Positions 5,108-45,806 of a stretch of DNA of 64,000 nt are shown here, one piece after another. Both the position numbers and the translations under genes were made by a program. The stretch is from Vairimorpha necatrix (taxonomy: Eukaryota): contig CP142728.1 in assembly GCA_036630325.1 (NCBI GenBank), positions 1 to 64,000 on the forward strand, given 5' to 3'. Under the pieces are notes generated by a model. It made no database searches. It saw only the letters and a program-made list of their open reading frames with translations, and was not told the DNA's origin. Each line of letters begins with the position of its first letter. The stretch's first letter is position 1.

Positions 5108-5156
5108 TGTTATATATCCTTATTATTTTTACCCCTCATTATGGAAAATAAACACA
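5108..5156 (+). repeat. 5' LTR (49 bp) containing CCCC motif, start ATG (5141) and AATAAA (5147-5152)
   Basis: Exact direct repeat of 8242-8290. Confidence 0.95.
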
Positions 5157-8100
5157 TGGGGGCGATACCAGAAAATGGGTCTACAAAGGAGGACCGTGGC
5201 CAAGAGGCTAGAATATTATTAAAAGAGGTTAAAAGGATTGTTTATGAGTTGTTTTTAGAGAAAATTGATGAGTGTGGATTTAAATTAGAAATTTTTAGGA
5301 GAGGTTCTATTTTATTGAGAAATTTTATTGTTGAGAGGATCTCGCAAGAGGGTAGTTGGAAGGAAATTGAGGAAAAATTAGAGTTGCTAGCTATTCAGGA
5401 GGAAAAGGAACAAGTGAGAAAAAAAGAATTTGAAGAGTTGTCCCTAGCGTTATGGGCTAAATTTGAGGAGAAGAATAAGTTGTCTCGTGAGGAAAATAAA
5501 AAGAATATGCGTTGCTACAATTGTGGGAAGTTAGGCCATAGTGTTAGATTTTGTAGGGGAATGAGGCGAGATTCTGAAGACAGAAGAAATAAAAGTAGTT
5601 TTAATTATGTTGGTAAATGTAAAGTGCAATTAGACTTAGAGGGTAAATGTGATGACGATTCCAATTCGGACAAATGTGATTATTATAATGTTGATGGTGG
5701 GAAACGTAAGAAGAAAAATTTAGGGGATATACAAGATTATAGCAAAAAGGACAATAATAAGAGAGTTCTGTTGAGAAGGGATGTAAGAGGCATCGCGTAT
5801 TTAGAGGAGATTATTTCACGGGTAGGAGGAAGAGAGGATGAAGATATTAGTTTTTGTAAGGTTGAAAAATGTATTATCAAGACTCAAGAAGGCAAGAAAG
5901 TTGTTAAAAAAGGGCAGGCTATAGCTCAGGCTTTGTTGAAGAAGACGGAAGATTATATTAATAATTTGGAAAGAAGAAAGATAATTAGAAGGTCGACATC
6001 TGACTATAGAAATCCCATTAGAGCGATTGAGAAACCGAATTGTGATATAAGATTAGTAAGTAATTTAATTGCTCTTAATGACATTGTAGAGAAGGATCCT
6101 TATGAGTTAACTAGGATAAGAGATGTTATTAGAAGTACACAGGGATCTGAATTTTTTACCGTGATAGATCTAAAGGAGGGGTTTTATAGTATTGAGATTG
6201 AAGAGAAGGATAGGTTTAAGACGGCTTTTGAGTTTAATAAAAAGGTATACGAGTGGAATTCGATGGTCATGGGGTTTAAAAACTCACCGCAGATATTACA
6301 AAGAATAATGAATGGGATTTTTGAAAAATTTATTGGTAAGGGAATCGAAATTTATATGGACGATATTGTGATTCATAGTAAGACAAGAGAGGGTCACGAC
6401 AAATTGTTGAAAGAGGCTGTGGATATATTAGAGGAGAATAGTATGAAAATTAATTTGGCTAAGGTTCAATTATGTAAACGAGAGTGATGTTGTTAGGAGT
6501 AACAGTTAATGGCAAGGAGATACTGCCATCTGAAATAAAGCAAAATGAAGCGTTAGAATTTCCCAAACCGGAGTGTGTATCAGATGTTAGGAAGTTTCTT
6601 GGGCTGGCTGGATGGTTTAGAAATCATATTGATAATTATGCAAAACGTACATTGGCGTTGACGGATTCTCTTAAAGGACGAGGAAGTAATTGGAAATGGA
6701 CAGAAGAAATGGAAAAAGAATATATTAGTTTAAGGGAAGTGATTAGGGATTTAAAAGGTTTAGCAATTGTTAATTATAATAAGGAATTTTTGTTACGCAC
6801 GGATGCGAGTAATGTTGGAATGGGTGCTGTTTTAATGCAGGAAGATGATCAAGGTAATTGGGTACCAGTACAGTGGGCATCAAAAAAGTTTACGCCTACG
6901 GAAACGAGATATGGAATCAGTGAGAAGGAGATGTATGCAGTCTTTTGGGGAATTAAAAAGTTTGAATATGAACTACGCGGAAGAAGATTTAGGGTAGAAA
7001 CTGATCATAAGGCATTGATCGAGATTAGAAATAAACCAGCATTTAACAATAATAGAATTAACAGGTGGATTGAAAAGATTCAAGAGTTCGACTTTAGCAT
7101 TGAATATAGAGAGCCTAGTACCATGGTTGTAGCAGATGCACTGAGTAGGGTACATGAAAATGAGAAAACGCTAATGAATAAGGAGAGAAGTATTAAACAG
7201 GCACAGGGTAAATGGGACAAGCATGTTAAAGTTGTTGATGGGAAGGAAATTTGGGTATTTGACTCTGGTAGAGAAGCGGAGATTCCAAAGAAAGAATTGC
7301 GTGAAGGTTTAATTGTCAATGCTCATGAAAATTTGGGACATAGAAGTTTAGGATCAGTGTACTATGCAATGAAGTTTGAATTTTATTGGCCGGGTATGAA
7401 GAAGGATATCGAGGATGTTTTAAAGAAGTGTGAAGTTTGCCAAATATATAATAGGAAAAAGAGTGGTGGTTGTGATTTTGTTAGTTCAAGATTTTATTTG
7501 GAAAAGGTTGCTTTGGATTTGATTGAGTTTAGAGATTTAGGGAAATATGTGTTGGTCGTGATTGATTATTATACTAGGATCGTTTGGGGAAAAGTAATAG
7601 AGGACAAACGCGGAAGCTCGGTTGTAGGATTTTTAAAACAGTTGTGTGGATCAGGAATGAAACCGGTAGAAATAATTACTGACAACGGTAAAGAATTTAG
7701 TAATGAATATATGAGGAATTGGTGTTCAGAGGAAAATGTATTACATAGGAAAGTAAGCGTAGAAAGTCATAGAAGTAATGGAAGAGTGGAAAGGGTAATA
7801 GGAACCATAAGAGAAGGAATATTGAAAGATGATGCTGTGGATTTTGAAGCCAAGGTTAATAGATGTATATGGCGTTATAATAACAGCTATCATGAAGGGT
7901 TGAGATGTACACCGTTTGAGGCCTCAAGAGACGAAACGGGCCATGTTATGATCGAGAATGGACCTGAAGGATTTTATAGTAGGAGGTTTGTGGCTCGCAA
8001 AAGAGAGAAATTCTATAAAGGTCAGAGAGTTAGGGTAGCGAAGAAAGAGAACTTATCGGGTTGTAGTAAGTATGAGAAAGGAAGGTTTTTAGGATATGGT

Positions 8101-8214
8101 GTTATCAAGGAAGTTTGCGGAGGTGACTCGTACTTAGTTAGTTTGGAAAATGGTAGGATCGTGAAAAAGCGGCATTATGATTTAAAAGGTCTGCTTGGGA
8201 TTAATGAGTTCTAG
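5141..8214 (+). CDS. Gag-Pol polyprotein (Gag with CCHC knuckle, RT, RNase H, integrase); one frameshift at ~6483; no recognisable protease
   Basis: Motifs CYNCGKLGHSVRFC; IDLKEGF and YMDD; TDAS/EKEM/TDH/ADAL; HENLGH..CEVC; LDLIEF/TDNGKEF/NGRVERV. The true start is likely ATG 5141 (or 5156), not the track's TTG 5003, which lies outside the TSD. Confidence 0.93.
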
Positions 8215-8241
8215 TATGAGACTACCGTCTTGGAGGGGGGA

Positions 8242-8290
8242 TGTTATATATCCTTATTATTTTTACCCCTCATTATGGAAAATAAACACA
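8242..8290 (+). repeat. 3' LTR (49 bp)
   Basis: Identical to 5108-5156, preceded by the PPT and followed by the TSD. Confidence 0.95.
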
Positions 8291-11200
8291 TTGTGTCTAT
8301 TTTTTATGTTCTTGTCGTAACCTCGGGTGAGGTGTCCGAAACGAAGTTGTTGTTCTATGAATGAACAAATAAAGGGTTTTGTTTTAATTAAGTGTTTATT
8401 TTTATGATCTCTCTGTGGAGTCATGTTTACTTGTTGTCTCTCTGAGCTATTATATCTTTGCATCTTTTTTGTGTGCCCTTCTTTTCATATTTTTTATTTA
8501 TAGAAAATATTTTCTATAATTCACTTTTTCTAAAAATTGAAAAATATGAAAAATTTAAGAAATAATTGTGGTGGATACCACAGTTCTCTTTGGGATTCAA
8601 TTTTCTATGGTTGAAAATATAATATTTTAAAAATGAGAGGGTGTTAAAATATTGGATAATTGAAAAATACTTCCTATATAAAATATACTTGATATGTGAT
8701 CATAATGCCTTAGATATGTTTTGTTTATACTTATATTATATCTTTAATAACCGTTAGATTTACTTCTTGATTGATCTTCATATAAGTTCAATTATGAAGA
8801 GAATTAGTTTGATATATTTGATAACCAGTAAATATTGAAAAGTTTTGCGATTCAGATATGTGGTTTATTAAAATTATTGCGTAAAAAATTTCGGATAGTT
8901 TAAAAGTAACATAACATTCTCTATGAAAATGTTTTACTTAATGTGTTATGTTAAAATGTTATTTTTTATGATAAAACCAATTCATGGATTATTAAAAAAT
9001 TTTTATTTTTAATTAAATCATTAGATTGATTTTATTCTACGAAAATCAAAATGTTTATTCCAAAAAAATCATGAAGATTTTTTTGTTTTAATAATTGAAA
9101 TTTAATTTATCAATTTATTATTATTTTTTTTTATCATTTAATATTTAAATTAAATATAATTTAAAAAAATTAGAAATCGTCATCCGGATGTATGTTTAAT
9201 ATGTAATTGTGTTTATGCATAAAAATATTTTCTGTCATTATTAAAGATAAGATTTGTTTTTTTAATTTATACGCTCTTACATTATATTATCCTTAAATTT
9301 ATATAAATATCTATTAATTAGTTGCATTGGGTTTTGTTTATTTGTTTTATTTAACCTTCTTAGCTCTTATTGATTTATATTTTTAAATTCTTCGGTTAGT
9401 GTAAGATATTTTTCAAAAATTTACTTAAAATGTATTTATTTTGATTTTATTTTTATCATAATTATAGTATCATTAATAAATACGTGGACTATATTATATT
9501 TACTAGAAAAATTCACATGAAGAAATACGAAATTCATATCCAGCCTAGTTTTGTGTATAAATTTACAATTTGTATGAATACTGATAGTCTTATTTTTTTT
9601 TTTAATATTTTACTGACCATTATTAGATTTATTTCTTAGTATTTATCATTATTTCCATTGAAATAATTTTTTGTATTTTATTTTATAATTTTTTTACAGA
9701 TTATTACAAAAATTTCAAAATAATGTTGTAATAAAGGATAACAGAATGAAATGTCGTTCGTTGTGTTCCTCTATAGATGTTTATATTTTATTTTCGTCGT
9801 ATGTCTTTATGTTTCTTTAAGACTTTAAATTTTTATTTATAAATTTTCTTGATATTATTTGGTTTATATATGCTACATTTTTATAATAATTTTAAAAACT
9901 TAAGTTAAGCATAAAAAATGAGTTTTTAGATATGAAGAACTTTCCAATGTTTCCTTGCGATAAATAGTATTGAATATTTTACTATAAGAATGATTTAAAT
10001 CATTTATAAAACTTTTTCAAATATTGATAGTTTTTTGATAACTTTAATCTACAATTTTCTAAAACCCTCCATGATATGGTTTCTTTTGAAATACAAATAT
10101 ATGAAAATTTTTAATAGATTATTTTTAATATTTTTATAAATTTTTCGTTATTGAATCATATGTTTCTCGTGTAGGTTGTATATATCATCATGTTTAATAA
10201 TGTAGGTGTAATATATTGATTTAAATTTTGATTGATATATTTTTTTTAAAAAAAGATTAAGTTGTTATATGTTCTAAAACTATTACTTATTTTAATCAGT
10301 CGTATGTGTATTATTATGAGCGAAATTTGAAAATAAAAAATTCAATTTAATGATCAAAAAATATTATTTTCGTTTTAGTGGTTGAGATTTCTAGATTAAT
10401 TAGTCGTGAAAATTTAATTTTATGAAAATTTTCTTCTTTTTACTTATCTAAAATTATTTGAACGTTAAGTTTGAATGTTTTTATTAACTATTCTAAATGA
10501 AAATGTTTATTTTCAAAACGAGTTTAAGTCCAATACGTTTTTTTTAAAAAAAAGTTATCCTACTACTTTAAATATATTTTCTTTTAAAAATTATTTTTGT
10601 AATATTAACCTCAATTATCTTTATTGAAATTGTATTTCGAAATATATTAGTTTTTTCAAAGATTTTTATTGGCATTATGTTTATTTTACTTGTAGATAAA
10701 TCTTTATGTATTATAAAATTTGTATTGAAGTAAAAAATTTTCTTGACCTTTTCATACTTAGATTCAATCTAACGCATTTTATTGAACTATAGACAATATA
10801 TAATATCATAATTAAATTTCAATTTTTCTTCAAAAATATTGACTATAACAGTTATATAAAAATTTTGATATAAAAATTTTAAATATCTTATAATTATAAG
10901 ACAAAGAATGAAATTTTTTATTTTATAAGAGGAATTTTTAAGTTTAGTCTTTTAACTAATAATATTTCATTTTTTGCTAAATAAGAATAATTTTTATTTT
11001 TTTATTTAAATATGTGTAAATGAATTAATGTATATTCTAAAAATTTAAATTCTTAAGCATACTTTTAAATTATCGAGACTAACGATATATAAATATAATT
11101 TAAGTTTTTTTTATTTCCAAGATTTTTATTTGTTTTTCAGAAGTATTACCATTATGTTAATATTTAATATATGCAATTCAAACTTTTAGACTTTTCTTTT

Positions 11201-12814
11201 ATTTTTTTGTAAATAATCTTGAAAACGTCTTGGTAAAGATTATATAGTATTATAATTGAGAAATATTTGTCGTGTATTAACATATTTTTAGTGGGGTTTT
11301 TTTATTTAAAAAAAGCTAGTATTAATCATGTTTATTTTATGTTAATACTCTTTATATAAATTAAAATTATTTTCTTCTTAAATAAATAAATTTTGAAATA
11401 TATATTTTTTTTGCGTGTAACTATGGTATATAAGGTTTTTTAAATTTAGATTTCATACCTAATTCTATTATTGTTTTTAGCTGTATTGGATTTATATGCA
11501 TTTCTATTCCCCCCCCCCCCCGTTTTTTTGGTTTTATTTTTTTGGCTTATGCGACGCCTTTTTAAAAATCTCAAAAACGTTTTATTCACAACAACCTTGT
11601 ATTAAATTGTATGTGCTCTTTTTTTTATTTAATTATTCATAATTTAAAATTTACTAATTATTTCTTATTATATTATATTATAGAAAATATATTCAAGTAG
11701 GTTTTCCCTAGAATTTTTTAAAATCAATAACATAAATGTTGTTTCTAAGTAAAATTCTTTTTACCGTTACTGAACGATTTACAATTAATAGGTCATATTT
11801 TATATTGTTAATTTAATATAATTTTCTTAATTCTTCTAATTATACATTAAATAAATGTTTTTCTAATGAATATATAATTTTACGATAATTGATGTTTGAA
11901 TCTAGAAAATTTTTTTTTCGTAAATGAACTCTTTTTATAATATTTCGATCTTCATACTTAAATTTTAATCTAATTATTATATAAAAATATTATACTTAAC
12001 GGATTTAGAAAGTTTTATTTATAACAAAAGAGCGATTATCAAATATTTAACCGATAGATATTTATATTGTTTTATTATTTCATTAAAATTAATAATAAAA
12101 TAATATATTTTTATAAATATGATACTAGTATTAATGATTTTACTTTTTAGAATTTTTTGGTCATAATTTCTAATTTTGTGTGGTCAATATGATTGTAAAC
12201 AACAAAGTAATATTTGTGAAATTTGTTTTTTACTAACTTCGATTTCAAAAGTCTACTTTGTTTTATAACTGAAACTTCTTTAGAATTCTATAAACCAAAA
12301 AAATGTAATATACGAGGTTAATCGAAATTCGTTTAAAATTTTTATATAATATTTGTTTTCGTTTTTTTACCATTAGTAATTATTATACTTAATAACGTGT
12401 ACATATTAACCATGTTTGAATATATATATAGTTGATTTTTTAGTATATTTTATAGTTTTAAAATCGTCTGATAAGTTCTAGATAATAAAAAAAAATTGCT
12501 TGTGTTAATTGTACTTATATAATACTATATGCAATATTGGGATTTCTTTTTGTTTATCTTGGCGTAGATTTTAATATAAAAGAAAATTGTATTTCATCTA
12601 ATATCTTGATTGTATATCTTATTTTAAATTCTTATGTATTTATAGTGCAAAGCAATATGAATGAATCATATGTATATCTTTTCTTTATAATCCAATATTA
12701 TCTAGTCATCATCATCATATATATAAAAGAATTTTATTTAATTTTTTACCCCTCTTTTTTGTGATTTTGAAATTTCTAAACGATACATTTTGAGGCTTTT
12801 ATGTTATTATAATA

Positions 12815-15800
12815 TGTTAACCATTTATTTATTAAGGGTTCTAAACCCTACATCCCCCCTCCAGACGGGTAGTCTCTCCATCTTCTAAACAACTCTTCCT
12901 TATCTCTTTCAAATCATAATGCCTCTTTTTAACAATTTTACCATCCAGTAGTCTCACAATATATGAATCATTTTCACTTATAGCTACGATCCTTCCGCGA
13001 CCCGTGAATCTTCCCTTGTCTGTTTTCGCACGTGTACCTAAATTTTCTCTCCTAGCGATTCTTACCTCTTGGCCTACTGTAAATGTCTCTCTGTGTCTTC
13101 TCTTGAACCGACCAGCATATTTTCCATTTTCATCATTTTCAATTATAACTTCAGCAGTTTGATCTCTCCACGCTTCCATCGGCGTACATTTTATTGCTGT
13201 ATGTAGTTTATTATTATATCCTTTGATTGCTCTTTCTATCTTTTCAGAAATATTCTCATCATTTTGCTTTATCAATGTCTCTCTTATAGTTCTGATGCAT
13301 CTCTCGATTCTACCATTACTCCTATGAGCTTCTAAGCCCACTTTCCTATGTTTAATATCATTAATACTACACCATTCTTTAAATCTATTACTTACAAACT
13401 CTTTTCCGTTGTCTGTCACATATTCCTCTGGAAATCCATCTTCCCTTATCCACTTTTGTAATACCTCTATAACTTCACTACTCTCTTTACATCTCAAATT
13501 CGAACCCCACAACCTTCTAGTAAAGTAATCAATACCCAGTAACACATACCTATTCTCTCCACCTATGTCTATTAAATCCAACGCCACTTTCTCCAATTTC
13601 TTTCTAGTTACTGCGAAATCACATCCTCCTGTGTTTTCCTATTGTTAATCCCACATATTTCACAATTCTTAATTACCTTATTAATATGATCTTTCATACC
13701 AGTCCAATACCATCTTTGTTTAATGTTATAATAAGTGCCTTTGACACCTCTATGGTTTAACTCCTCATGTACTCTTGTTATTTCATGTTCTCTACTATCT
13801 AGGCTCAATATCTCTTTCACCTCACCTGTGGAAAATTCCCAATACTGTTTACCGTCCTTTTCTTTAATATGTTTCTGCTTTTTTCCCAAAATTTGTTTTT
13901 CGATCACTTCTTTTCTCTTGTTGTCCTTTTCTTTTTGTTCATCCGAAACTTCTACCTGATCATACTGCCTACTTAACGCATCTGCATCTGTCATCAACTC
14001 CCCTTTCACATATTCTATTGTAAAGTCAAACTCTTGTATCTGTTCTACCCATCTGTTTATTCTGTTATTATTGAAGTATGGCTTATTTCTGATCTCTGCT
14101 AATGCTTTATGATCCGTCATCAAATGAAATTTCCTTCCTCTCAAATCACTTTCAAACTTCTTTATTCCAAAAAAAACACCGCCAACATCTCCTTCTCACT
14201 TATCGTATATCTTCGCTCGGTAGGAGTCAACATTTTCGATGCCCATTGTATCGGAATCCACTCATCCTCTTTATTTTCTTGTAATAGAATTGCTCCGATC
14301 CCCGTATCACACGCATCAGTTCTTACTCTAAATAGCTTTTTTCCGTCCGGAATCTTCAACTTTTTCATATCTCTCAAGCCTTGCTTCATATCCTCAAAAG
14401 CTCTTTCCATATCCTCCGTCCAATTCCACTTAACATCTTTCTTTAAAGCCTCAGTAAGCCTTACTGTTCTATACGCATAGTTGGGAATAAAGTCTCTAAA
14501 CCAACCAGTTAGTCCTAAAAATCTTCTTAACTCTCTAACATTCTCAGGTTTTCTATATTCCAATGTCTCCTGCTTTTTAATCTCATTCGGTCCCATGACC
14601 TCCCCATTAATTGTTACTCCCAGCAACATCACCTCATCTTTTTTGTATTGTATCTTTGTTTGGTTTATTCTCAACCCACACTCTTTAAACTTTTTAATTA
14701 CCCTCTCTAGTAACTCGTCATGCACTCTTACGTCTTTACCATGAATAACTATATCATCCATATATACTTCCACGCCTTTACCTCTGAATTCATCTAAAAC
14801 TCTGTTCATTACTCTCTGCATTATATGAGGCGAATTCTTAAACCCCATAACCATACTATTCCATTCGTATACTCGACCATTCACTTCAAATGCTGTTTTG
14901 TGCTTATGGTGCTCCTCAATCTCAATATGATAAAACCCTTCTTTTAAGTCGATAACCGTAAATACTTTTGACCCCTGTGTGGCTCTCATAATATCCTTAA
15001 TTAACGGTAGTGAGTACGGGTCCTTGTCAACCAAATCGTTTAACGCCATCAAATTGCTTACCAATCTTACGTCCCCATTTGGTTTTTCAAGTGCTCTTAT
15101 TGGACTCCTCCACTCACTTTTGGAACGTCTTATAACCCCTCTATTTTCCAACTTATTCAAGTACTCCTCAAATTTCACCCTAAGGTAGTATGGCACATTC
15201 TGCCCTCTTTTCACAACCTTTTCACCTTGCTTAGTATTTATTGGACACTTCTCTCCTGTGAGATATTTTATCTTTTCTTCTGATTCTTTAAAAACTTCCG
15301 GATACTTTTCAATTAAATTTTCTAACTTATTTACTGTTTTACATCTTTTCCCTTCATTGTTGATAATTGGTTCTTTCTGTAAAACTTGTTCCTTTTTAAT
15401 TTTATATTTTTCCCTACCAGCTACACTTTCATGACATTCTATAGCGTAATGCCCTTCTTTCTTACATATAAAACATTTTGTAGTTTCTCTGATTTCTCTT
15501 CTTTTCCTATACATCCTAAGATTTTCTTTTCTTTCTTCCCTAAACTCTTTCAACACTTTATCCATAATCTCTTTAATCATTTCTTGTCTTTCTTCTGACT
15601 CTCTCTCAAATTCTGCTCCTTTTTGTAAGCCTTTATAAATTTCCTCCCAACTGCTCCTTCCGTCACAAAAATTTTCAAAAATATAATCCTGCAAGTTCGC
15701 AGATGCCAAATCCATAACATCTTTCCACTCAACTTTCTCAACTTTCAATATTAACTTTAGTCTCTTATCTATCCTAATTGCCTCTTTCTCTAATGTTCTA

Positions 15801-15890
15801 GCCTCTTGACTACGGGACTCTCTTGTTTCCCTGTTCATCCTTGTGTTCGCCATGTTAACCATTTATTTATTAAGGGTTCTAAACCCTACA
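12815..15890 (-). mobile_element. Young Ty3/Gypsy LTR retrotransposon, 3076 bp, 38-bp LTRs
   Basis: Identical LTRs at 15853-15890 and 12815-12852 (minus strand TGTAGGGTTTAGAACCCTTAATAAATAAATGGTTAACA); TSD TAATA at 12810-12814 and 15891-15895; PBS TGGCGAACAC; PPT GGAGGGGGGA at 12853-12862. Confidence 0.97.
12841..15862 (-). CDS. Gag-Pol polyprotein (CCHC, RT, RNase H, integrase); frameshifts in homopolymers at ~14170 and ~13635; no recognisable protease
   Basis: Motifs CFICKKEGHYAIEC; YMDD; TDAC/EKEM/TDH/ADAL; HEELNH..CEIC; LDLID/TDNGKEF/NGRIER. The start ATG lies in the 5' LTR and the stop TAG (12841-12843) lies in the 3' LTR. Confidence 0.93.
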
Positions 15891-16283
15891 TAATATTAAA
15901 AATAAATTCAATGTTTTAATTTGACTATTCCAAGTGTGTATACTATGTGTTAATACATTTTAATTATGATTGTTATTTTCGAAAAGCTTGGTCCCAAAAT
16001 ATCGTCAGAATCGTTTTTTAGAATTTATTTAACCCTTCTAGAAAAATTCACAAAAACATGTTAAAAAAAAAAAGTTGAATATAAGTGTCAAAACTTGAGC
16101 TTAGAAGTTCCAAAAATTATCTCATTATAATAATTAAATGTTTTTAGATCGACTTTGCTCTTTATATGTTACTAAAAAGTATTTTTAAAATCATATTTTC
16201 TCCTTTTTAAATTCATTCATCCCAAAATGGAAACTTAACAAGATTAAAAGGGGAAATACATATTTCCAAACAAAACATTTAGA

Positions 16284-16315
16284 TCCCGTTTTCAAAACGG
16301 GAAAGCATACGCTAG
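16284..16315 (+). mobile_element. Helitron-like 3' terminus (hairpin followed by CTAG)
   Basis: Palindrome TCCCGTTTTCAAAACGGGA (16284-16302), then CTAG at 16312-16315 followed by T, which matches the canonical Helitron 3' end. The 5' end was not identified. Confidence 0.6.
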
Positions 16316-30030: not shown

Positions 30031-30070
30031 CTAACCTAACACCCACCCACCTACCCTACCTACCACTTAA
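30031..30070 (+). repeat. Short interstitial telomere-like tract
   Basis: CTAACCTAACACCCACCCACCTACCCTACCTACCAC, with the same units and orientation as 1-1116. Confidence 0.55.
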
Positions 30071-32227: not shown

Positions 32228-32955
32228 TGTTAAAGATAAAAGTATGTGAAGGGTTAATTTATAAAATATATATTCTCAACATCCCGCGCTGAATTTACAA
32301 CTAAGTATTTTATATATTTGTTCTCTTAACTCGCTCACTACTTGGCTCTCCTAATAATAGTGCAATTTTATGTTAACAGACCATGGGCTGTGCTTTATTC
32401 TTTTGCATTTTAATATCTTCTCTAGTTTTGGTCTTTACAGTTCTTTCTTTCCCTGTTTAAATAAATTTCCTCGATAAGCATGAAAATTTTTTTTAACATG
32501 TCTTCTTAACATTGTAACTATGATTTTATCTATCTATTTCATTATTCAACTATAACACTGTTTTTTTTTTGATTTTCTTCTCTTTTTAAATCTCTCTGGA
32601 TTTTGAACACTAGTTGTTCAGCTATCTTCCCACGATAGCTTTAATATTAATGGTGATTACCACTACACTCAATATCGACAACTTTTATGTCAGATATTAC
32701 AAGATCAAAACTGTTTCAAATAGCAATCCATAGCTACTCTAAGTCTTCACATATGCAAGACATCACCTTCTCTTCTGTTAGACATCCAACACCCCAATCT
32801 GTCATATACTGCATTTTTTTTACGTCTCATGCCTCGGCGGAACTTACAACCTTTTCTTTTGTTTATGTTTGGGTTCGATCATTTTTTTTATTGTCCACCA
32901 TGTTAAAGAAAATTGTAAGTTAAGGGTTAAATTTTTTAAATATATATTCTCAACA
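32228..32955 (-). mobile_element. Internally deleted or non-autonomous LTR element (728 bp, ~54-bp diverged LTRs)
   Basis: Direct repeats at 32228-32281 and 32901-32955 (TGTTAAAGA..AAGGGTTAA..ATATATATTCTCAACA); PBS-like TGGTGGACA abuts the right repeat on the minus strand; short purine tract GCGGGA next to the left repeat; TSD not preserved. Confidence 0.7.
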
Positions 32956-35900: not shown

Positions 35901-36169
35901 TAAAGTTTCAACTTTTAAAATTTTATTTAATTTTTGATACATTTATTTCTTAAATAACGAAAGAAAGTAATTGAGAAGATTATTTTTATAAATTTTCCTG
36001 AATCAAAATAAAAAAATAACAACTTATAGGTTTTTCTAGAAAAGTCCCAACGTATTTCAAATTAATTTGTAAGAAAGTTTTTTTTTTATACAAAGAAAAT
36101 ATGCATAATAAAATTAATTTGTGTATGCTAGTGTTGTTTATACTTCTAATTAAACAAGAATATTATTTG

Positions 36170-36455
36170 AGTTGGCGTCTTCTGCTTGTAGGAAGCATCC
36201 GCTCTATGGTCCTTTCAACATCAACTTCGTCTCCTCGAATTAGTAATTTCAGAGATACGCATTCTTTCATCTTCTTTAGCTTGATCGTCTAGATATAAGC
36301 TTGTACTGTCTTAGGGATTCTAAGTCACTTGTAAAAGATTTGTAAAACTTAGACTATACCGTCGCAGGTGATTATGTAGGGAATTATTTCTGTTTTAAAA
36401 CCATACTAAGCACAGTTCGTTTGTAAAAACATCGTATTTCTATACTTATCGGTTT
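36170..36455 (-). mobile_element. 3' fragment of probable RLE-type non-LTR retrotransposon
   Basis: The minus strand encodes (frameshifted) KYDVFTNELC..YGFKTEIIPYIITCDGIV..VQAYI, homologous to the 53295 fragment; shares the terminal motif with 18032 and 27723. Confidence 0.65.
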
Positions 36456-38467
36456 AAAGGAGATATTAAATATATATATAAATTATATTTTTAAAACAAG
36501 AAAATATAATTAAGTATTTTTATAACCGCGATAATAAGAAAAATTATCTGATTTTTCCTTTTCTCGTTATAAATTTTTTTCATACAGTTAAAAAGCTGGA
36601 TGTTGTTTGTTTAATTATGCGTTGTGTCAATATATCATGTTTAAGCTAATTTAGATAGATAAAATATATAGTGTAGTGAAAAACTCAAAAATTTTCATGC
36701 AATATTTATAAAAAAGCTTTTACCTCAGTACTATTATTATAAATGAAGCACCAAATTTTCTAATATTCATTAGAAATACAGAAATTTATAAAACCATTTG
36801 TACAAGCGTGGTAGGTGTAATTTTAAAGTAACTAAAAAAAGCCTTAAGCAAGTCTTAAGACAATACAACAAAGTTATTCCGATGTAATGACAAGTTAAAT
36901 ATAGCAAAACAAACACGATATATATATTGATTCTATTTATCGTGGCATTTTTTTATAATTAAAAACACAATAAAATCTCTGTTTTCATTATTTAATTATT
37001 ATGAAAACGAGTTATGACATGGGCTGTTTTCGTTAGTGTCGAAATTAGAGTTAACAATACTTATAAAGTTAACGAAAACATAGTATATTAGATTTTACTA
37101 TATATATGACGTTCTTATTCACACTTTGATTTTTATAATATAAACATGTTTTGAAATAAAGTAGCTTTAATATCATTTTTTTGTAATTACATATTATACG
37201 GATTTATAATTCAATCTTTACTTTATATGTTTATGATTTGTTATATTAAATTTACCTGTGCATTACAATGGCTTTTTTGGTAGATTCGATATTGACCTAA
37301 ATTTAAGCATAATTTTTCTGTTTTGATACAAATACTAGGTCTTTTCTGTAAAAAATAACCTGCAAATAGTAATAGAGTCACAAAAGATTATGTACAATTT
37401 TTTATTTTAAAAATTATATACAATATTTGCTATCTCTGATATTTAAATAATTTAGCCTACACAAATATATAAATAGCCGTTTAAACCTATACTTCTTAAT
37501 TGTATCTATACAAAGAATCAAATTTCACATAGAAACATAATAGTAAAACAAATTTGGAGAAATACTTGTGCAATATTACTGATATAATTTAAAAAAATCA
37601 TTGTATTATTAACAAACTATTAAGTTAACATAATTTTAAAAATTCAATCTATATATTTTTTCATTCTAAGAGGATCCTGAACTAATTTTTAAATTACGGC
37701 TTTTTTATAATAAACTGTGGCTACTAAATGTTTGTTTTGTTGTATTAAAGGCAATTTACATTATCATCAGATACTGTAACAACCAGTCCTTTCAATATAA
37801 ACAGAGTTAGAATTTATACAATTAAAATTTTGTTTTCAAATTTGAATAGAGCTAAAAATAGTAAATACAGATTATATTATTAAAACTATGTTAATTATTA
37901 ATCAACTCACGTGCCAAGTCATTTTTTTTCATATCTGTGTCTAATACATTATATATTTTATTAATATTGTAATATAACACATGTATATTAATTCTTAAAG
38001 TTTTTTTTAATCTTACCCTTTATTTCTAGTTAAATATAAAAAGAGAAATACAAGGCTTTGTGAAAATTAAAAAGAAATATGTAAATTTATATGGTTTAGA
38101 GCGTTCGACTTTTTATAACAGTTAAAATTTGATTATATAAAAACTTTTATTTTCTTACAAATGAAAATTTTATTTTGACAGCACAATTGATATTTAGTAA
38201 ATATTTAATTAATATCATTTGCAGTAGTATATAATTAAAGTCCAAAGTGCTTGAAAAATTTCCATAATTTTAGAATGTTGATATGTAAGAAAATAAAACG
38301 TAATTTATATGCTAAAATTCATATAATATTTATAGGCATATAAAAATAAATATTTCTTTTCATCTTTAAATGATTTGTATTTTATAAAAAATTTTAGAGC
38401 TGAAATTTTTTCGTTTTAAATATAAAAACGATTAGACATAATTATTTATTTCATATTTGTTTATTTT

Positions 38468-41400
38468 TGTCGTATCCTTCTATAAATATTATATATTTTC
38501 ACCCCGATGCAATTCGTAAATAAAGGAACATTCGACATGGCGACAGCGATAAAAACTGTTGGCTGCTTCAGTGGAAAGAAGGAAGAGGATATAAATACAT
38601 GGTTGCGTGACACAACGTTCACGGCGAGGGTTATGGGACTGACAGAAGATCAGACCGCCAGACTTATCTGCCTGGGTCTACGGGGGCCAGCTCTCTCATG
38701 GATAGCAATGGCATTTGAACGGGTGTCCGAACTTGATCTGGCAGAGGTTACTAAGAGTCTAAAATTGAGATTTTACAGTTCACAGAAAACTCTGGCCACT
38801 CTAGACGAGTTTGTTAAACCGCAACAATTTGGCAACCTAGAGGCTTTCATAGACTTCTGCAGGAAAGGAAACTCCCTTATAGAGCAACAAACAATGGGGT
38901 ACAAAGCAGTCAGCCTCATAGTAATCAAGAAGTCTCCTTCAGTCCTCAAATCAATTCTTTATGATTTTGCTAGACAATGCCAAGATTGGAGTGAATTCCT
39001 GAGGCGCACAGAGGAAGTTTCTTGGATAGCATTCCCTATGAAAAGTAACACGACTAATACGGACGAGACACTAGATAACAGGACTTTGAAGGTCGCACCA
39101 TCGAAGAAGGGAAATATACCCTACACCATAGAAAACTACAAGATCAACAGCTGTTTCACTAATCCTTGCTACATAAACGTAGAATTCAATCGTAAACGAC
39201 ATCGAGCATTAATTGATACCGGAGCTGATGTCTCCCTGATACCCGCAAGAGTCCTCGAAGGGACAAATATCAGATTTACCAGATCTTCAACGATCATACG
39301 AGCAGCATCAGGGACACCATTGGAGATTATAGGAAGATGTCTAAATATCAATTTTAGGACGGAAAACACTTCAATTACTTTCAGCCCTTACGTCACAGAA
39401 CGGACACCGGACTACATAATCTTAGGAGTTGACGCTATACGAACGAACCCCATATTACTGGAACAACTGATCAGAAAATTCGCCAATACAGTCAAGAAAG
39501 GCTCACTGATTAACAAAGTCAATTACATCTCAATCGAAGAGAAATACCATGACATGTTCAAAACTGAAATTTCAGAGCTTACACTTTGTAACATGGGGAA
39601 ACATCAAATCGAGACAACAGTAGCGAAGGCAATTTACCAGAAAAATGGAAAGATACCTCTGCACTTTGAAGAGGAAATCACACAACAGATCAAGAAGAAC
39701 TTGCAGTTGGGCGTAATAAGAAATAGTAGGAGCCCCTGGAATAGTAGAGTTGTTCCGGTAACGAAACCTGATGGGTCGATCAGGCTCTGTATAGATTACA
39801 GAGAGCTCAACAAGATAACAGTCAAAGATAAATACCCCCTCCCACGAATTAATGAAATTCTCGACGATCTAGCTGACGCTACTATCTTTTCGACATTAGA
39901 TGCTACGTCGGGATATTATCAGATAGCCCTTGAAGAAGTAGACAAGGAGAAGACAGCATTCAGCTGGAGAGGAGGACATTATGAATTTAACAGGATGCCG
40001 TTTGGGCTATGTAATGCCCCTGCTACTTTTCAGAGAACTATGGATAAGATTTTTGTGAAAGAAAACAGAAAATTCGTCATACCATACTTGGATGACATTA
40101 TTATCTATTCTAAAAATCACCAGGAACACCGTGAACACTTGGAAATCGTATTGGGTAAGCTTAAGGCAGCAGGAATCGCACTTAACAGGAAGAAGTGCCA
40201 CTTCTTCAAAGAAGAAATTAAAATTCTAGGGAATATAGTAACAAACAAGACGATCAAACTGGACCCAGAGAAGGTCAAAGCCATAAACGAGTATAAGGAG
40301 CCGACGAATATTGCTCAACTACGGTCGTTTCTTGGGCTCATAAATTACTGTAGGGAGTTCATCCGTAACTTATCAGCGATAGCAGCCCTCTCTACGAACT
40401 GTTTAAAGGAGAGTCAAAGCGAAGTGTTAAGAGTATTTCTCTCAGCAAAAAGGAGAAACAGGCATTCGAAGATCTAAAGAGACTTCTCACAGAAGAGACA
40501 ATAAGATACAAGATTAATCTCAGGAAACCGTTTATACTGACTACGGATGCGTCAGAGCAGGGAATAGGCGCGATCCTCTCACAGATTGGAGATGATGGGA
40601 AGGAGCACTTCGTAAGTGCATTCAGCAAAAGTTTAGAGAAAGCCCATAAGAACTACTCTACAACAGACAAAGAACTCTTGGCCGTTGTAAAAGGCATCGA
40701 GAACTATAGACACTACCTCCTGGGTAGAGAGTTCATATTGAAGACGGACCACAAAGCGCTGACTTATCTATGGGAAGCTAAGAATCCTACCAGTAGATTG
40801 CTGAGGTGGGCAATGAAGTTGCAGGAGTATGCATTTCAATCAACCTACATAAAAGGAGAGGTTAATGGAGCAGACGGGTTAAGCAGACAAAACTCGACAG
40901 AAAAAGATATAAATATCATCGAAGCTACAGGACCAAGCGATGAAGACAGACAGAAGATCTTAGAATCCTACCATCTAGACGTTGGACATGCTAGCGCTAG
41001 TACGATGAGCTTCATGATTTCACAGAGGTACAAATGGGCAGGAATGCATAAGGACATCAAGGAACACGTAGAAAAGTGTAAAACGTGCTTGAAATCGGGA
41101 TACCCATTACGAAACACAAAAAACAAAGTTATACGATCAGAAAGGCCGAACCAAATATGGGTGATAGATCTCATAGGACGCATATGCGACACTTCGGGTC
41201 AAAACAGCTTCATATTCATTGCTATTGACCACTACTCTAAATGGGTCGAGACGGCTGTTATTAACTATAAAACAGGGTCGAAAATAATGGGATTAATCCA
41301 GCAATTGATTATCGAGAAACACGGCATTCCAGAAAGAATCTTGACTGACAACGGGCTAGAATTTATAAATTCTGACATCAAAGACCTGGCCGAAAAGAAC

Positions 41401-42011
41401 GGTATTGACTGGCAATACAATTCACCAGAACATCACGAAACTGTAGGCGCAGTAGAAAGAGCGAATCAGACGTTAATGAAGATACTAAATAAAATTACAG
41501 ATTTCGGAAGGGTAAGCTGGAAGAACAAGCTTCCAGAAGCCACGAGATGCCTCAACCTGTCTTATAATCGGAGCATAGGAACATCGCCGTTCATGTTAAG
41601 GGAGAATAAATTGCCGATGCTGTCTGTAGACAAAGCGCTAGACAAGGAAGAAGTGACATTCTCGGCGGAGGAAACGAAGAGTAAGCGCGATGAAAACTTC
41701 GAAAAGTACAAAAAAGCAATCGTGAAAGGGAAAGTAGAAGTGGCGAAAAAGCTAAACGTGGGCGATAAAGTTTTAATATATCGTGAGATCAAAAGCGGGA
41801 AGTTCAAGTGCAATTGGGAAGATGGATACGTGATCACAGAAATAATTTTACCCGATGCCTATGTGGTAAAAAAGAATGGAAAAGTATACAGGCTTAACAA
41901 AACACGAGTTAAAGCAGATACTTCAATTTAGGGGGGAGAGGTGTCGTATCCTTCTATAAATATTATATATTTTCACCCCGATGCAATTCGTAAATAAAGG
42001 AACATTCGACA
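38468..42011 (+). mobile_element. Young Ty3/Gypsy LTR retrotransposon of a second family, 3544 bp, 70-bp LTRs
   Basis: Identical LTRs at 38468-38537 and 41942-42011 (TGTCG..CGACA); TSD ATTTT at 38463-38467 and 42012-42016; PBS TGGCGACAGCGAT; PPT AGGGGGGAGAGG at 41930-41941. Confidence 0.97.
38507..41931 (+). CDS. Gag-Pol polyprotein (Gag/CA, aspartic protease, RT, RNase H, integrase); frameshift at ~40386
   Basis: Gag FSGKKEEDINTWL; protease ALIDTGADVS..ILGVD; RT RLCIDYRELN, MPFGLCNAPATF, YLDD; RNase H TDAS/TDH/ADGLSR; integrase HLDVGH..CKTC, IDLIG/TDNGLEF/GAVERAN. Adding one C at GCAGCCCTCTC restores AAPLYEL. Confidence 0.94.
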
Positions 42012-42664
42012 ATTTTTATTTTCCTCCTCAAGCAAAAATATATTTTTCTAGTTTGAATTTACCATAAATAATTATATATTGTTAGAATAAAATTTAAAAG
42101 TAATAGACAAGATGTTTTTTGATACTTTAACTACAAGATTATCAATTTGGTTAATAAATGGTTATTTTATATACGTTTTATACTGATGAAGGAATTTTTA
42201 TGCATTCCATATCTATAATTATTATAATAGTCTTAAATGTTTTTTACACATTTCAGGATTTATACGTGAATTTCCATTTGTTTATTTATGGCAATAAATA
42301 AGAGCCCTTATAATATCGTGAGATCACACATAGAAATAAGTTATAAAAATAGATTAATAATAGGAAAGTATATAATTCGTATTAAAATATTAAATAGGAT
42401 TTTTTTATAAATTTTAATATATAAAGACCTTTTTTGGCTTGTATGTGTGTTTAATGTCAAGCAATTAAGTTTTTCTAATATTTCGAAAGATTTTAACGTA
42501 AGACTAAGAATTTTACGTAATCAATTAGATAAATTTAGTAATGACCTATTAATTATAGAAATACTGAACTTACTCTGGTTAAGAATCTTGTATAGTTGTT
42601 TATAATAATATGCACAATTTTACAAATTTGTAATTTTATTAATCAAAAAATATATGGTAGAATA

Positions 42665-45600
42665 TGTTATAATCAGTAATAATATTAAACCCCAATTATG
42701 TTAAGCACTTATATGGGGGCGATACCTAAAGAAGAGTTCACAAGAGAGGACTGTGGCCAAGTGGTCAGAAAGATGTTACAGGAGTTAGAGCGTATATTGT
42801 ATGAATTGGATTTGAGAGATGTGGATAGAGAGAAATGGAAGAGTGAGCTGTTCAAGTTGGCTTCGATGGATTTAAAAGATTTTATTGTGAGAAATATCAA
42901 AAAGGAAGAAAATATTGAAGGAATAAGGAAGAAGCTATTGTTAAGGATTAAGGAAGTAGAGGAGGAAGAAAAGATATATGAGGAAATGAGAAAAATTATT
43001 TCTAGGACTATAAATGAAGAAATTAGTAGAGAACAACCAAGACAAAAATCGAAATTACCGAGATGCTTCTATTGTGATAGACAAGGGCATAGGGTGTTTG
43101 AATGCAGACTGAAGATTAATAGAGATAATTATTATAAAAAGAATAACAAGGATAACAGTTGCAAAATGGAAGTATGTAGTGAATCAGAGTCAAGTCAGGA
43201 GCGAGATTTTAGAAGATCAAAAAGAGGACTTAGAGTCAAATTTGAGAAAAATCAAAAAGAATATGCCGTTAAAGAGGAGAGTAAGAGAATCAGATTAAAT
43301 TTAGATAAGTATGCTAAGAGTTTTGGAGAGGTTTTTAAGTTAGGAAAAGAGGAGATAGAATATTGTAAACTGGAAAAATGTAAAATTAATACTGAAGCGG
43401 GTAAGAAGGTATTTAAAAAGGGACAAATGGTTCCGCAGGCGTTGATAAAAGATACAGAGCTACATCTAGAAGATTTATTAAAAAGGAAAGTGATAAGAGA
43501 GTCAAATTCAAGTTGGAGGAATCCTATAAGGTCAATCAGAAAGCCAAATGGTGAGATAAGACTGGTTAGTAATTTGATGGCATTGAACGATATTGTAAAA
43601 AGGACGAGTATAGATTGTCTAACATAAGAGATGTTGTAAGAGCTACACAAGGTGCAAAATACATGACGGTTTTCGACTTAAAAGAGGCCTTCTATAGTAT
43701 TGAGATAGAGGAGGAGGATAAACATAAGACGGCGTTTGATTTTAATGGCAAGGTTTATGAATGGAACTCTATGGTTATGGGATATAAGAATAGCCCGCAG
43801 ATATTGCAGAGAATTATGGATAGGATTTTTAGAGATATGAAAGGCAAAGGAGTAGAGGTGTATATGGACGATATTGTGTTGTACAGCCGAACGATAAGAG
43901 AACACGAGCAATTAGTGAAAAGGGTATTAAATAGACTGAAGGAAAACAATATGAAGCTGAATGCAAATAAAATTCAGTTTTGTCAACGTGAAGTTAAGTT
44001 ATTGGGAGTCACTTTAAATGGAGAAGATATAATACCGTCAGAGATAAAGAAAAATGAAGCCCTAGAGTTTCCGATACCAACATGCGTGTCAGATGTAAGA
44101 AGATTTTTAGGAATGACGGGTTGGTTCAGAGATTTTATTAAGAATTACGCTGGATTGACAGTTAGGTTGACAGATAGTTTAAAAGGGAAGAATGATAATT
44201 GGAAGTGGACGGATGATATGAAAAACGAGTTTAATAATTTAAAAGAAGTATTGAAAGGCCTAGGAAAGCTGCGAATAGCAGACTATGATAAAGAATTTTT
44301 GTTGAGGACTGACGCTAGTAATGTAGGCATGGGCGCAGTACTGTTACAGAAAAATAATCAAGGAGAATGGGTGCCAGTACAGTGGGCGTCTAAGAAGTTT
44401 ACCGTTACGGAAGTTAATTATGGTATATCAGAAAAAGAAATGTACGCAGTTTTTTGGGGCGTTAAAAAGTTTGAATATGAATTAAGAGGTAGGAAATTTA
44501 GAATAGAAACTGATCATAAAGCGTTGGGCGAAATAAGAAACAAGCCCGACTTTAAGAATGCTAGAATTAATAGATGGGTCGAGAAGATTCAGGAATTTGA
44601 TTTCGTGATAGAATATAGAACTCCAGAAAATATGGTCGTAGCCGATGCGCTAAGTAGGGTATATACAAAAGAAAAAGATGCAAAGAAAAAGAGAAATGAA
44701 ATACGCCGTGATAGACAAAAAGAAGGGAAAAGAAATAAGCATGTAAAAATTGTAGAAGGTAAAGAATACTGGGTATTTGATAGTGGTAGAGAAGGCGAGA
44801 TGCCTTTGGAACAAGACAGAGAGAGATTAATAATGGATTGTCATGTCAATTTGAGCCACAGAAGCAGAACAACGGTATATTATGAGTTGAGGAAACAGTA
44901 TTATTGGCCAGGAATTAAGGATCAGATCGAAAAGGTCCTTAAGAATTGCGAGACTTGTCAGATTTTTAATAGAAAAACGAGTGGCGGTACTGATTTAGTG
45001 AACACGACAAGATATTTAGAGAAGGTTGGCTTAGATTTAATAGAATTTAGGGATGAGAAAGCGTTTATTGTTTTGGCAGTTGATTACTTTACAAGGAGAT
45101 TATGGGGCAGAGTATTGAAGAGCAAGCACGCATCTGGAATTGCCGAATTTATCAAGGATTTGTGTAAACAGGGTAGAAAACCAGAGGAAATCATTACGGA
45201 TAATGGTAAAGAGTTTTGCAACGAAAAAGTTACCGAGCTATGTAGAAATTTGGATATTAGTCATAGAAAGGTCAGCGTTGAGTCGCACAGAAGTAATGGA
45301 AGAGTAGAAAGAGTTATTAGAACTGTAAGAGATAGTATTTTAAAGAGCCAAAAAGAGAAATTCGAGAACAAGGTTTATGAAGCTATTGAGAAATATAATT
45401 TAAGTTTTCATGCTGGTATTAAGTGCACGCCAGTAGAAGCTTTAACCGATAATACAGGAAATGTTAGTATGGAGAATAGTCCAGAGGGAAAGTATGCGCA
45501 ACAGTTCAAAAGTTGGTTTAGAGAAAAGTTCAAAAGGAACCAGATAGTTAGGGTTGCCAAGAATGAGAATTTAAAGGGATGTAGTAAGTATAGTAAGGGT

Positions 45601-45806
45601 CGATTTTTAGACATGGGAAGAGTGATTGAGCTATGTCCAGGGGATTCATATATAGTGAGATTAGAGAATGGAAGGTTGGTGAAAAAAAGGCATTATGATC
45701 TTAAAGGTGTAGGGGATTTAAAGTATGTTGAAGGAGACTAACCGTCTGGAGGGGGGATGTTATAATCAGTAATAATATTAAACCCCAATTATGTTAAGCA
45801 CTTATA
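42665..45806 (+). mobile_element. Young Ty3/Gypsy LTR retrotransposon, 3142 bp, 49-bp LTRs ending TG..TA
   Basis: Identical LTRs at 42665-42713 and 45758-45806; TSD GAATA at 42660-42664 and 45807-45811; PBS TGGGGGCGATACC; PPT GGAGGGGGGA at 45748-45757. Confidence 0.97.
42698..45741 (+). CDS. Gag-Pol polyprotein (CCHC, RT, RNase H, integrase); frameshift in an A-run at ~43600; no recognisable protease
   Basis: Motifs CFYCDRQGHRVFEC; YMDD; TDAS/EKEM/TDH/ADAL; HVNLSH..CETC; LDLIEF/TDNGKEF/NGRVERV; clear paralog of 5141-8214. Confidence 0.93.

Follow-up and report, generated by a model that had tools for sequence, protein, structure and literature searches.

Introduction

Ty3/gypsy retrotransposons in which a single polyprotein comprises both gag and pol are described for microsporidia in passages of PMC4202319 (Parisot et al. 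2014). In this study, we analyzed the first 64,000 nucleotides of contig CP142728.1 (assembly GCA_036630325.1), referred to as the window, and found five Ty3/gypsy-type long terminal repeat (LTR) retrotransposons, named E0 to E4; they are 3.08–3.54 kb in size each, and their LTRs are 38–70 bp in length. They share superfamily, host phylum and the single gag-pol polyprotein with the described elements. The Nbr elements of Nosema bombycis (Xu et al. 2006) are reportedly Ty3/gypsy elements with a single polyprotein as well. N. bombycis elements carry a protease, as stated in part of the text of PMC2474625; in one lineage of the window elements, no protease was found. Like the window elements, which have a CCC motif, one transposable element (TE) of Anncaliia algerae has the host-type motif, GGG, before the start codon of its polyprotein (PMC4072689). 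The LTR of A. algerae Consensus_retroA, as read by eye from Supplementary File S1, is ∼195 bp in length, compared to 38–70 bp here.

In print, a length of 194 bp has been described as 'very short' for an LTR (PMC3701649). The shortest LTRs that we found in print are those of FRetro64 (76 and 90 bp), a putative autonomous element, and of its partner FRetro129 (85 bp), a non-coding SMART element of grasses (PMC3281118). Like the window elements, FRetro64 and FRetro129 have TGT..ACA ends and 5-bp target-site duplications (TSDs). Different from them, both are plant elements of Ty1/copia type, and the leader regions of FRetro64 (5,234 bp) are of the ordinary non-coding kind (PMC3281118), whereas the window elements are of Ty3/gypsy type, are 3.1–3.5 kb in size, have the design of autonomous elements and carry LTRs of about half the length, which overlap the open reading frame (ORF) at both ends. 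The TRIM/SMART class has no coding capacity and is mobilized in trans; the window elements encode a full polyprotein of Gag, reverse transcriptase (RT), RNase H and integrase (IN), and lie outside this class. In our literature search, no autonomous element with LTRs below 76 bp came up, and for microsporidian elements neither short LTRs nor loss of the protease were described; Xu et al. 2006, Repbase and the Parisot tables may bear on this point.

Ty1 of Saccharomyces cerevisiae resembles the window elements in another respect: its primer-binding site (PBS) lies inside the GAG ORF and is translated, according to passages of PMC4974528. A first-pass annotation of the window had held that Gag normally starts downstream of the PBS, which is too strong in view of Ty1. 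Unlike the window elements, Ty1 belongs to the copia superfamily; its GAG and POL are separate, with a frameshift, it possesses a protease, and its start codon does not lie across the LTR/PBS junction. The Ty1 LTR is several hundred bp in length. A Gag start upstream of the PBS is therefore not new; judging from their sequence, what the window elements would add is an extreme miniaturization of Ty3/gypsy-type elements and, in one lineage, protease loss.

Five elements with very short LTRs

The first-pass annotation had proposed four elements between 5108 and 45806, with LTR pairs of 49, 38, 70 and 49 bp and perfect 5-bp TSDs. Our repeat search returned 100%-identical direct repeats from 5108/8242, 12814/15852, 38468/41942 and 42664/45757, and both the pairs and the TSDs (TTGTG, TAATA, ATTTT and GAATA) were confirmed; the final LTR and TSD limits of E1–E4 were set by reading the sequence at the repeat ends. 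These pairs are the sole exact direct repeats of at least 25 nt spaced 2–6 kb apart in the whole window. The count of four turned out to be one short, since a fifth element, E0 (1282–4449), lies beyond the range covered before. A mismatch-tolerant LTR scan of the window matched the LTRs themselves only; it found no solo LTRs, and gave no match in 20 shuffles.

E1 (5108–8290, plus strand) is 3183 bp in size and encodes a protease-less Gag(CCHC)-RT-RNase H-IN. Its 49-bp LTRs (5′, 5108–5156; 3′, 8242–8290) are identical and have TG..CA ends; they contain the TATTTTTACCCC motif, the ATG at 5141 and AATAAA at LTR positions 40–45. The TSD TTGTG is located at 5103–5107 and 8291–8295. The PBS-like sequence TGGGGGCGATACC (5157–5169) is read as (M)GAIP from an ATG at 5156–5158, and the polypurine tract (PPT) GGAGGGGGGA (8232–8241) adjoins the 3′ LTR. 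One frameshift near 6480 splits the coding region into two ORFs, 5141–6487 and 6478–8214. E4 (42665–45806, plus strand; 3142 bp) belongs to the same protease-less lineage; it has one frameshift, near 43600 in an A-run. The 49-bp LTRs of E4 (42665–42713 and 45758–45806) are identical, have TG..TA ends and contain ATTAAACCCC and the ATG at 42698; its TSD GAATA is at 42660–42664 and 45807–45811. The PBS-like sequence (42714–42726) is the same as in E1, and the PPT GGAGGGGGGA (45748–45757) adjoins the 3′ LTR.

E2 (12815–15890, minus strand) is 3076 bp in size, is of the protease-less lineage and carries two frameshifts. Its LTRs are 38 bp in length (5′, 15853–15890; 3′, 12815–12852), identical and of TG..CA type, with an ACCCTT motif and the ATG at 15862. 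E2 is flanked by the TSD TAATA (12810–12814 and 15891–15895); its PBS-like sequence TGGCGAACACAAGG (15839–15852) reads MANTR, and its PPT GGAGGGGGGA (12853–12862) adjoins the 3′ LTR. The last ORF piece of E2 stops within the 3′ LTR, at 12841–12843. E3 (38468–42011, plus strand; 3544 bp) encodes Gag-protease-RT-RNase H-IN, with one frameshift near 40390. The identical 70-bp LTRs of E3 (38468–38537 and 41942–42011), with TG..CA ends, contain TATAAAT, TTTTCACCCC, the ATG at 38507 and AATAAA. The TSD ATTTT is at 38463–38467 and 42012–42016, the PBS-like sequence TGGCGACAGCGAT (38538–38550) reads MATAI, and the PPT AGGGGGGAGAGG (41930–41941) adjoins the 3′ LTR.

E0 (minus strand; 3168 bp) was recognized by its LTRs, TSD and PBS-like sequence (TGGCAAACACAA, minus strand); it is decayed, with the ORF in many pieces. 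Its LTRs (5′, 4412–4449, 38 bp; 3′, 1282–1320, 39 bp) have diverged from each other and are of E2 type, and its TSD TTATA (1277–1281 and 4450–4454) is perfect. The preservation of diverged 38/39-bp LTRs of E2 type in a decayed copy indicates that the very short LTR is a stable family trait and not a recent accident. Taken together, all five elements have perfect 5-bp TSDs. The TGG-initiated PBS-like sequence, 12–14 nt in length, directly follows every 5′ LTR, and the PPT directly precedes the 3′ LTR; there is no spacer on either side.

One conserved nucleotide block, GAGACT(A)CC(C)GTCT(T), is located just upstream of the PPT in E0, E1 (8214–8241), E2 (12853–12885, minus strand), E4 (45735–45757) and the related element L003 (3640–3662 of its contig). 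As protein, the block appears as ..ETTRLEGG.. or ..ETPS.GGDV.. at the C-termini of distant relatives. Its AGAC and GTCT could pair as a small hairpin, and the block may act in cis in the priming of the plus strand.

Anatomy of the LTRs

The LTR sequences are TGTTATATATCCTTATTATTTTTACCCCTCATTATGGAAAATAAACACA (E1), TGTTATAATCAGTAATAATATTAAACCCCAATTATGTTAAGCACTTATA (E4), TGTAGGGTTTAGAACCCTTAATAAATAAATGGTTAACA (E2), TGTCGTATCCTTCTATAAATATTATATATTTTCACCCCGATGCAATTCGTAAATAAAGGAACATTCGACA (E3), and TGTTAAAGTTGAACCTCCTATTAAATAAATTTATAACA and TGTTAGGGTTGAACTTTCCTATTAAATAAATGTATAACA for the 5′ and 3′ LTRs of E0; those of L003 and L010, two relatives from public contigs, are TGTTGTATGTGAATAAATAACCCTTAATATTATATGACA and TGTTGTGAAACCATTTAAAAAATTTTAAATAAATAACCCTTAACTTATATTCTTAACA, respectively. 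These seven elements represent at least five families, with LTRs of 38–70 bp and TG..[CT]A ends. In line with the first-pass annotation, each LTR of E1–E4 is composed of one A/T-rich stretch, CCC(C) and the ATG (5141, 15862, 38507 and 42698, respectively), which opens a long ORF. The C-tract motifs are TATTTTTACCCC in E1, TTTTCACCCC in E3, TTAAACCCC in E4, and ACCCTT in E2, L003 and L010. From the C-tract to the LTR end there are 21 (E1), 20 (E4), 21 (E2), 16 (L003), 19 (L010) and 32 (E3) bases; the distance is thus 16–21 nt in five of the six LTRs that keep a C-tract, though LTR length spans 38–70 bp.

Relative to the LTR ATG, the C-tract is located at −9..−6 in E1, −8..−5 in E4 and −5..−2 in E3. 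As reported in passages of PMC2685015, CCC is enriched at −10..−3 of the host ATGs of N. ceranae and E. cuniculi. The earlier description of a host-style CCC near the ATG therefore holds for three of the four elements, with the C-tract at −9..−2, while E2 falls outside the zone. The hexamer A[AT]TAAA is present in all eight LTR sequences, 4–25 nt before the LTR end; it is AATAAA in E1, E2 and E3, the three of four counted before, and ATTAAA in E4.

The primer-binding site and the start of the polyprotein

In all window elements, a second ATG, the junction ATG, arises where the final A of the LTR meets the TG of the PBS. The upstream LTR ATG is in frame with the junction ATG in E1, E2, E3, E4 and, for the 3′ LTR only, E0. 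The polyprotein ORF begins either within the final 10–31 nt of the 5′ LTR or at the junction ATG, and runs through the PBS; the earlier claim that the R/U5 region is coding was right insofar as the ORF starts within the LTR, which makes the PBS coding. The residues following the second Met correspond to the PBS: MANTR, TGGCGAACACAAGG, in E2; MATA, TGGCGACAGCG, in E3; and MGAI, TGGGGGCGATACC, in E1 and E4. At the other end, the ORF runs through into the 3′ LTR in E2, L010 and several relatives, and several relatives end with ..RLEGG.. or ..GGDV.., which are translations of the PPT and the initial bases of the LTR.

We compared the N-termini of 27 full-length relatives, which are 996–1052 amino acids (aa) in length; shorter or partial ones were left out. 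Fourteen of them start with M-x(2-5)-[H/Y/N/D]-M-[A/G], and another six start directly with M-[A/G]. The residue preceding the second Met is always encoded by a NAC/NAT-type codon, as from an LTR ending with ..NACA. P0033, P0035 and P0036 (3/27) start with or contain M-V-E, as at the L010 junction. The first-pass annotation had placed the gag-pol start at the LTR ATG; this ATG opens the ORFs of E1–E4, whereas the start conserved across the relatives is the junction ATG.

The reverse complement of the L010 PBS has two exact matches in genome G001, used as a proxy for the host tRNA, and one of the two is the PBS itself. ARAGORN identified no tRNA in four (L012, L014, L017 and L018) of the ten loci fetched from G001, and no tRNA gene was found within the 64-kb window. 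We also considered Tf1-like self-priming. As judged by eye, the 3′ parts of the LTRs share at most ∼5 nt of complementarity with the PBS, and this candidate was weakly rejected.

Coding content

Pfam RVT_1, RT_RNaseH, Integrase_H2C2 and rve domains are present in Ty3/gypsy order in every element, and the coding share of the elements is ∼97%. The amino acid identities are 64% between E1-type and E4 proteins (pol), 40% between E1 and E2 (Gag-RT) and 27% between E3 and E1 (RNase H-IN). On the basis of these values, the window holds four families of two deep lineages, and the earlier suggestion that distinct families share the design was right; there are several.

Among the window elements, Pfam identified a retropepsin (gag-asp_proteas, RVP) in E3 alone. 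The protease expected upstream of RT in Ty3/gypsy elements was found neither in E1, E2 and E4 nor in any of the 20 scanned relatives. Retropepsin families gave no match at E ≤ 1 in these 20 full-length proteins, and D[TS]G is present in 1/20 of their stretches between the CCHC knuckle and RT, which are 56–134 aa in length. A Peptidase_A17 match (0.047) in 3/20 relatives was taken as noise. No protease Pfam family is listed among the 93 best matches to E4 (see below); the first one is in P0094. Together, these data indicate that one deep lineage, which comprises E0, E1, E2, E4 and dozens of relatives, has lost its protease. Because the retropepsin upstream of RT was not found, we regard this lineage as an atypical Ty3/gypsy derivative by pol homology, not as a textbook member. 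The zf-CCHC match is below the Pfam cut-off in E1 and likewise in 12/20 relatives, and the C-x2-C-x4-H-x4-C columns are invariant in A1, an alignment of relatives; no CCHC knuckle was detected in E3.

E1, E3 and E4 carry a single-base frameshift each, and the frameshifts of the window copies may be real mutations or assembly errors. An intact version of E1 exists in another public source: P0007 (1024 aa) differs little from E1, and its reading frame continues across the E1 break.

Empty target sites

The insertion-polymorphism check that the first-pass annotation had proposed gave empty sites for E3 and E4. Two public runs, X1 and X2, were examined as contigs across the window region. For E3, both X1 (depth 4.8, shorter side 66 nt) and X2 (depth 23, shorter side 18 nt) join 38462 to 42012; these contigs skip 3549 nt, which equals the 3544 bp of the element plus 5. 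For E4, one X1 contig (depth 9, shorter side 39 nt) joins 42657 to 45805 and skips 3147 nt, i.e. 3142 plus 5; in X2, the joint is 42631 to 45805, with a diverged flank. The empty target sites keep one copy of the duplicated pentamer. As the contigs skip the element and one duplication, E3 and E4 are discrete, polymorphic insertions, which are bounded by the short repeats and moved recently.

X1 may be the sample behind the window assembly. If so, X1 gives no independent support for the filled state; the information in the empty alleles does not depend on this. LTR-pair identity over repeats this short is a weak clock. One 1320-nt contig of X1 joins 41799–41941 through one 70-bp LTR to 38468–39645 of E3; this arrangement, 3′ interior-LTR-5′ interior, may stem from a one-LTR circle, from a tandem pair or from a path in the de Bruijn graph, and it was not used as evidence. 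In X2, ∼30% of the contig depth (399/1305) at 42719, in the PBS of E4, lacks 2 bases within the G-run, so that both the PBS and the reading frame would be altered in those copies.

Relatives in public sequence

Using the E4 RT-RNase H-IN as query, we obtained 1023 matches at E ≤ 1e-20. The 53 closest ones, P0001–P0053, have at least 40% identity over at least 97% of the query, and those with a taxon name are microsporidian except P0022, which is from a bacterial metagenome-assembled genome (MAG). Further down the list, P0084 and P0089 also bear bacterial MAG names, and P0090 bears that of a charophyte alga. The microsporidian taxa named among the relatives are Nosema granulosis, Vairimorpha necatrix, V. 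apis, Enteropsectra, Nematocida and Pseudoloma. In public databases, some of the protease-less relatives (P0001–P0093) are labeled 'endonuclease' or 'reverse transcriptase' (V. necatrix), or are assigned to bacterial MAGs (Clostridium, Turicibacter, Bacteroidales). For the E3 lineage, there is one close relative, the N-truncated P0122, among the matches listed; the other 149 listed matches are at most 84% identical, and the longer ones are all at most 54%.

Two complete related loci were recovered. L003, on a metagenome contig, is 52% identical, and its ORF is decayed; its two 39-bp LTRs differ by one mismatch, and it has the TSD TTATA, the PBS TGGCACCCAGTC and the PPT AAGGCGGGGA. L010 is located on a contig mis-binned in a bacterial MAG, codes for P0084 and is of a protease-bearing lineage; its 58-bp LTRs are identical. 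The L010 ORF opens at the junction ATG (MVENNG..) and ends with TAA at positions 14–16 of the 3′ LTR; its purine run is 24 nt upstream of the 3′ LTR and does not adjoin it. Beyond these two, the searches for complete loci gave none in viral contigs, five loci in metagenome contigs with L003 alone complete, and, in the genome-contig scan, four incomplete loci with alignment A1 and L010 plus distant matches only with alignment A2.

The contigs of ∼1000-aa Logan matches have 25–163 nt outside the ORF, and we considered this as proof of short LTRs. It was rejected, because k=31 unitigs end within 30 nt of any repeated LTR; the Logan contigs show that the element interior is almost wholly coding, nothing more.

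A model for replication and its alternatives

We consider, with a probability of about 0.7, that E0–E4 represent genuine, recently mobile and compact Ty3/gypsy-type elements, which follow an ordinary LTR cycle with a minimal promoter and R region and with RNA steps that we infer. In this cycle, RNA would be copied into cDNA primed at the PBS, which would be inserted by the DDE integrase with a 5-bp duplication. The 5′ part of the LTR, 14–38 nt in length, would be U3; it combines the integrase end (TGT..), the A/T tract and the CCC, and would correspond to the minimal T-rich/CCC start-proximal promoter motif of the host. Part of the text of PMC11592040 associates TTTTTTTACCCC and ACCCTT motifs with expression in Nosema species, and passages of PMC2803860 report 5′ untranslated regions (UTRs) of <7 nt in E. 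cuniculi mRNAs, with one CCC-like motif just upstream. Such tiny 5′ UTRs are not the general microsporidian trait that had been assumed earlier, as the average is 180 nt in Edhazardia aedis (PMC2474625). Since the C-tract motifs match the start-proximal promoter motif of the host, we propose the C-tract as promoter, with the transcription start site (TSS) directly after it. It is plausible that the LTR holds the whole core promoter with compressed U3, R and U5. R, which is already part of the coding region, would be made up of the remaining 16–21 nt (32 nt in E3), and minus-strand strong-stop DNA would be ∼15–30 nt in length. Guided by A[AT]TAAA, the transcript would be cleaved at the end of the 3′ LTR or slightly beyond it; because AATAAA is 4–25 nt from the LTR end, cleavage probably takes place at or beyond this end, which leaves little or no U5. 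A short 3′ tail derived from the host would be compatible with minus-strand transfer. As start codon, the LTR ATG would be used where it is in frame, and the junction ATG elsewhere. The protease-less lineage presumably uses an unprocessed Gag-RT-RNase H-IN fusion, or borrows a protease in trans.

Instead of being divided in this way, the whole LTR might be R, with transcripts that come from flanking read-through, which is common in microsporidia, or are driven by elements within gag, and with CCC for the translation or start-site context only. RT could then switch templates anywhere in the 38–70 nt of LTR homology, and no promoter would be needed in the LTR. The putative U3 of 14–38 nt is indeed extremely small, the position of the poly(A) hexamer varies (in E1, it is 4 nt from the LTR end), and passages of PMC2803860 describe overlapping or read-through transcripts and weak poly(A) recognition in E. 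cuniculi. However, the T-rich/CCC motif is near-fixed at 16–21 nt from the end in five unrelated LTRs of very different length, for which an LTR without any role in start-site choice hardly accounts, and dependence on flanking promoters poorly fits the spread into gene-poor subtelomeric DNA, which makes this explanation improbable to us. It is also conceivable, but rather unlikely, that the junction ATG is always used, with the TSS downstream of the LTR ATG, an R of ∼5–15 nt and the upstream ATG as a by-product of A/T-richness and the gene caller. The junction Met is the shared start of the patterned relatives; the upstream ATG is missing from L010 and from 6/20 of these relatives, and the decayed L003 has it out of frame; it therefore cannot be the universal start. 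On the other hand, an in-frame upstream ATG occurs 3–10 codons earlier in 14/27 relatives and in 5/5 window elements (E0, 3′ LTR only), such clustering exceeds chance, and in E1, E3 and E4 the CCC has its host-like spacing to the LTR ATG rather than to the junction ATG. We give hardly any credence to the short repeats being artefacts, or remnants of longer LTRs in dead copies. The weak clock noted above and the frameshifts in all window copies would allow this; yet LTRs of 38–70 bp are present in seven elements, which represent at least five families and come from the window and from two independent public contigs, the empty-site contigs of two runs agree with the repeat ends to the base, E0 and E2 both have 38–39 bp despite long divergence, and there is no further homology outside the repeats.

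Several observations weigh against the compact-element model. The TSS, the poly(A) site, the length of R and the start codon in use are all inferred from sequence. The variable AATAAA position and the missing or out-of-frame upstream ATGs count here as well. Seven of the 27 relatives have no clear junction-Met pattern, including P0019, P0052, P0056 and P0073, which have none. Alignment A1 consists of exactly the 20 patterned sequences, so that its invariant Met is a product of that selection; the unbiased figure is 20/27. The CCC-to-ATG spacing of E2 is −14..−12, outside the host −10..−3 zone. L010 has no TSD (its flanks are AATAC and GTTTG), possibly due to chimeric assembly of a multicopy element. 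With at least one frameshift each, none of the window copies is demonstrably autonomous as assembled.

Significance

Going beyond the compact-element model, these elements could belong to a phylum-wide microsporidian radiation of minimal LTR retroelements, in which every cis signal (the integrase ends, the host-style CCC core promoter, the start codon across the LTR/PBS junction, the PBS, the PPT and the poly(A) signal) overlaps the ORF or another signal. U3 of ∼15–40 nt and R of ∼16–30 nt, with no U5, would be near the physical limit for minus-strand transfer; one lineage would do without its own protease and replicate with its Gag-RT-RNase H-IN fusion unprocessed, and the elements would be the smallest autonomous LTR retrotransposons, with the shortest functional LTRs known. 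We put this forward tentatively, at a little short of an even chance. That integration and, by inference, the start of transcription and strand transfer are possible with a 38-bp repeat lowers the known bound for LTR content, which makes the minimal sizes of U3, R and U5 directly testable. The protease-less lineage raises the question of Ty3/gypsy-type replication without Gag-Pol processing.

LTR finders with a minimum LTR of ∼100 bp, a default value, cannot detect these elements. As, in addition, at least one public annotation (V. necatrix) names the relatives as ordinary proteins, the TE content and recent activity of microsporidia may be underestimated. Short LTRs have been linked to few solo LTRs (PMC3701649, PMC3281118), and the window, in which no solo LTRs were found, fits this; short LTRs may slow the removal of the elements by recombination. 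The insertional polymorphism between samples could provide strain markers.

Chromosomal context of the window

The window starts with a telomere-like tandem array (1–1119; strand not applicable), which was identified by Tandem Repeats Finder and has strong negative GC skew. Its units are TACC and TACCTAACC; the TACC array is ∼1.1 kb in length and contains ∼255 copies of the 4-mer, with 80% matches. The array suggests that the window start is a chromosome end, and the decayed E0 starts ∼160 nt from it. The window is nearly gene-free, with G+C of ∼22%. The one clear host gene (55209–57395, minus strand) encodes a 729-aa protein, which is 97% identical to an uncharacterized Vairimorpha necatrix protein; CCACCCAT, a host-type CCC motif, is located before its ATG. 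On the basis of the telomere-like start and this host gene, the window is the subtelomeric end of a V. necatrix-like microsporidian chromosome.

TTTTTACCCC, an exact host-type motif, is present at 12743–12752, ∼60 nt from the point where E2 is inserted. No ORF follows this motif, which may be a remnant or a promoter that has lost its gene. With at most one mismatch, TTTTTACCCC occurs 15 times in the window, compared to 5.8 expected. Direct-repeat families are also present at 23337–23650. The contig depth of X2 peaks at 32002–33335 (3083–5121), 36004–36670 (590) and 47343–48009 (621), with adjacent bins at 3–80; these peaks suggest other high-copy repeats without a long ORF.

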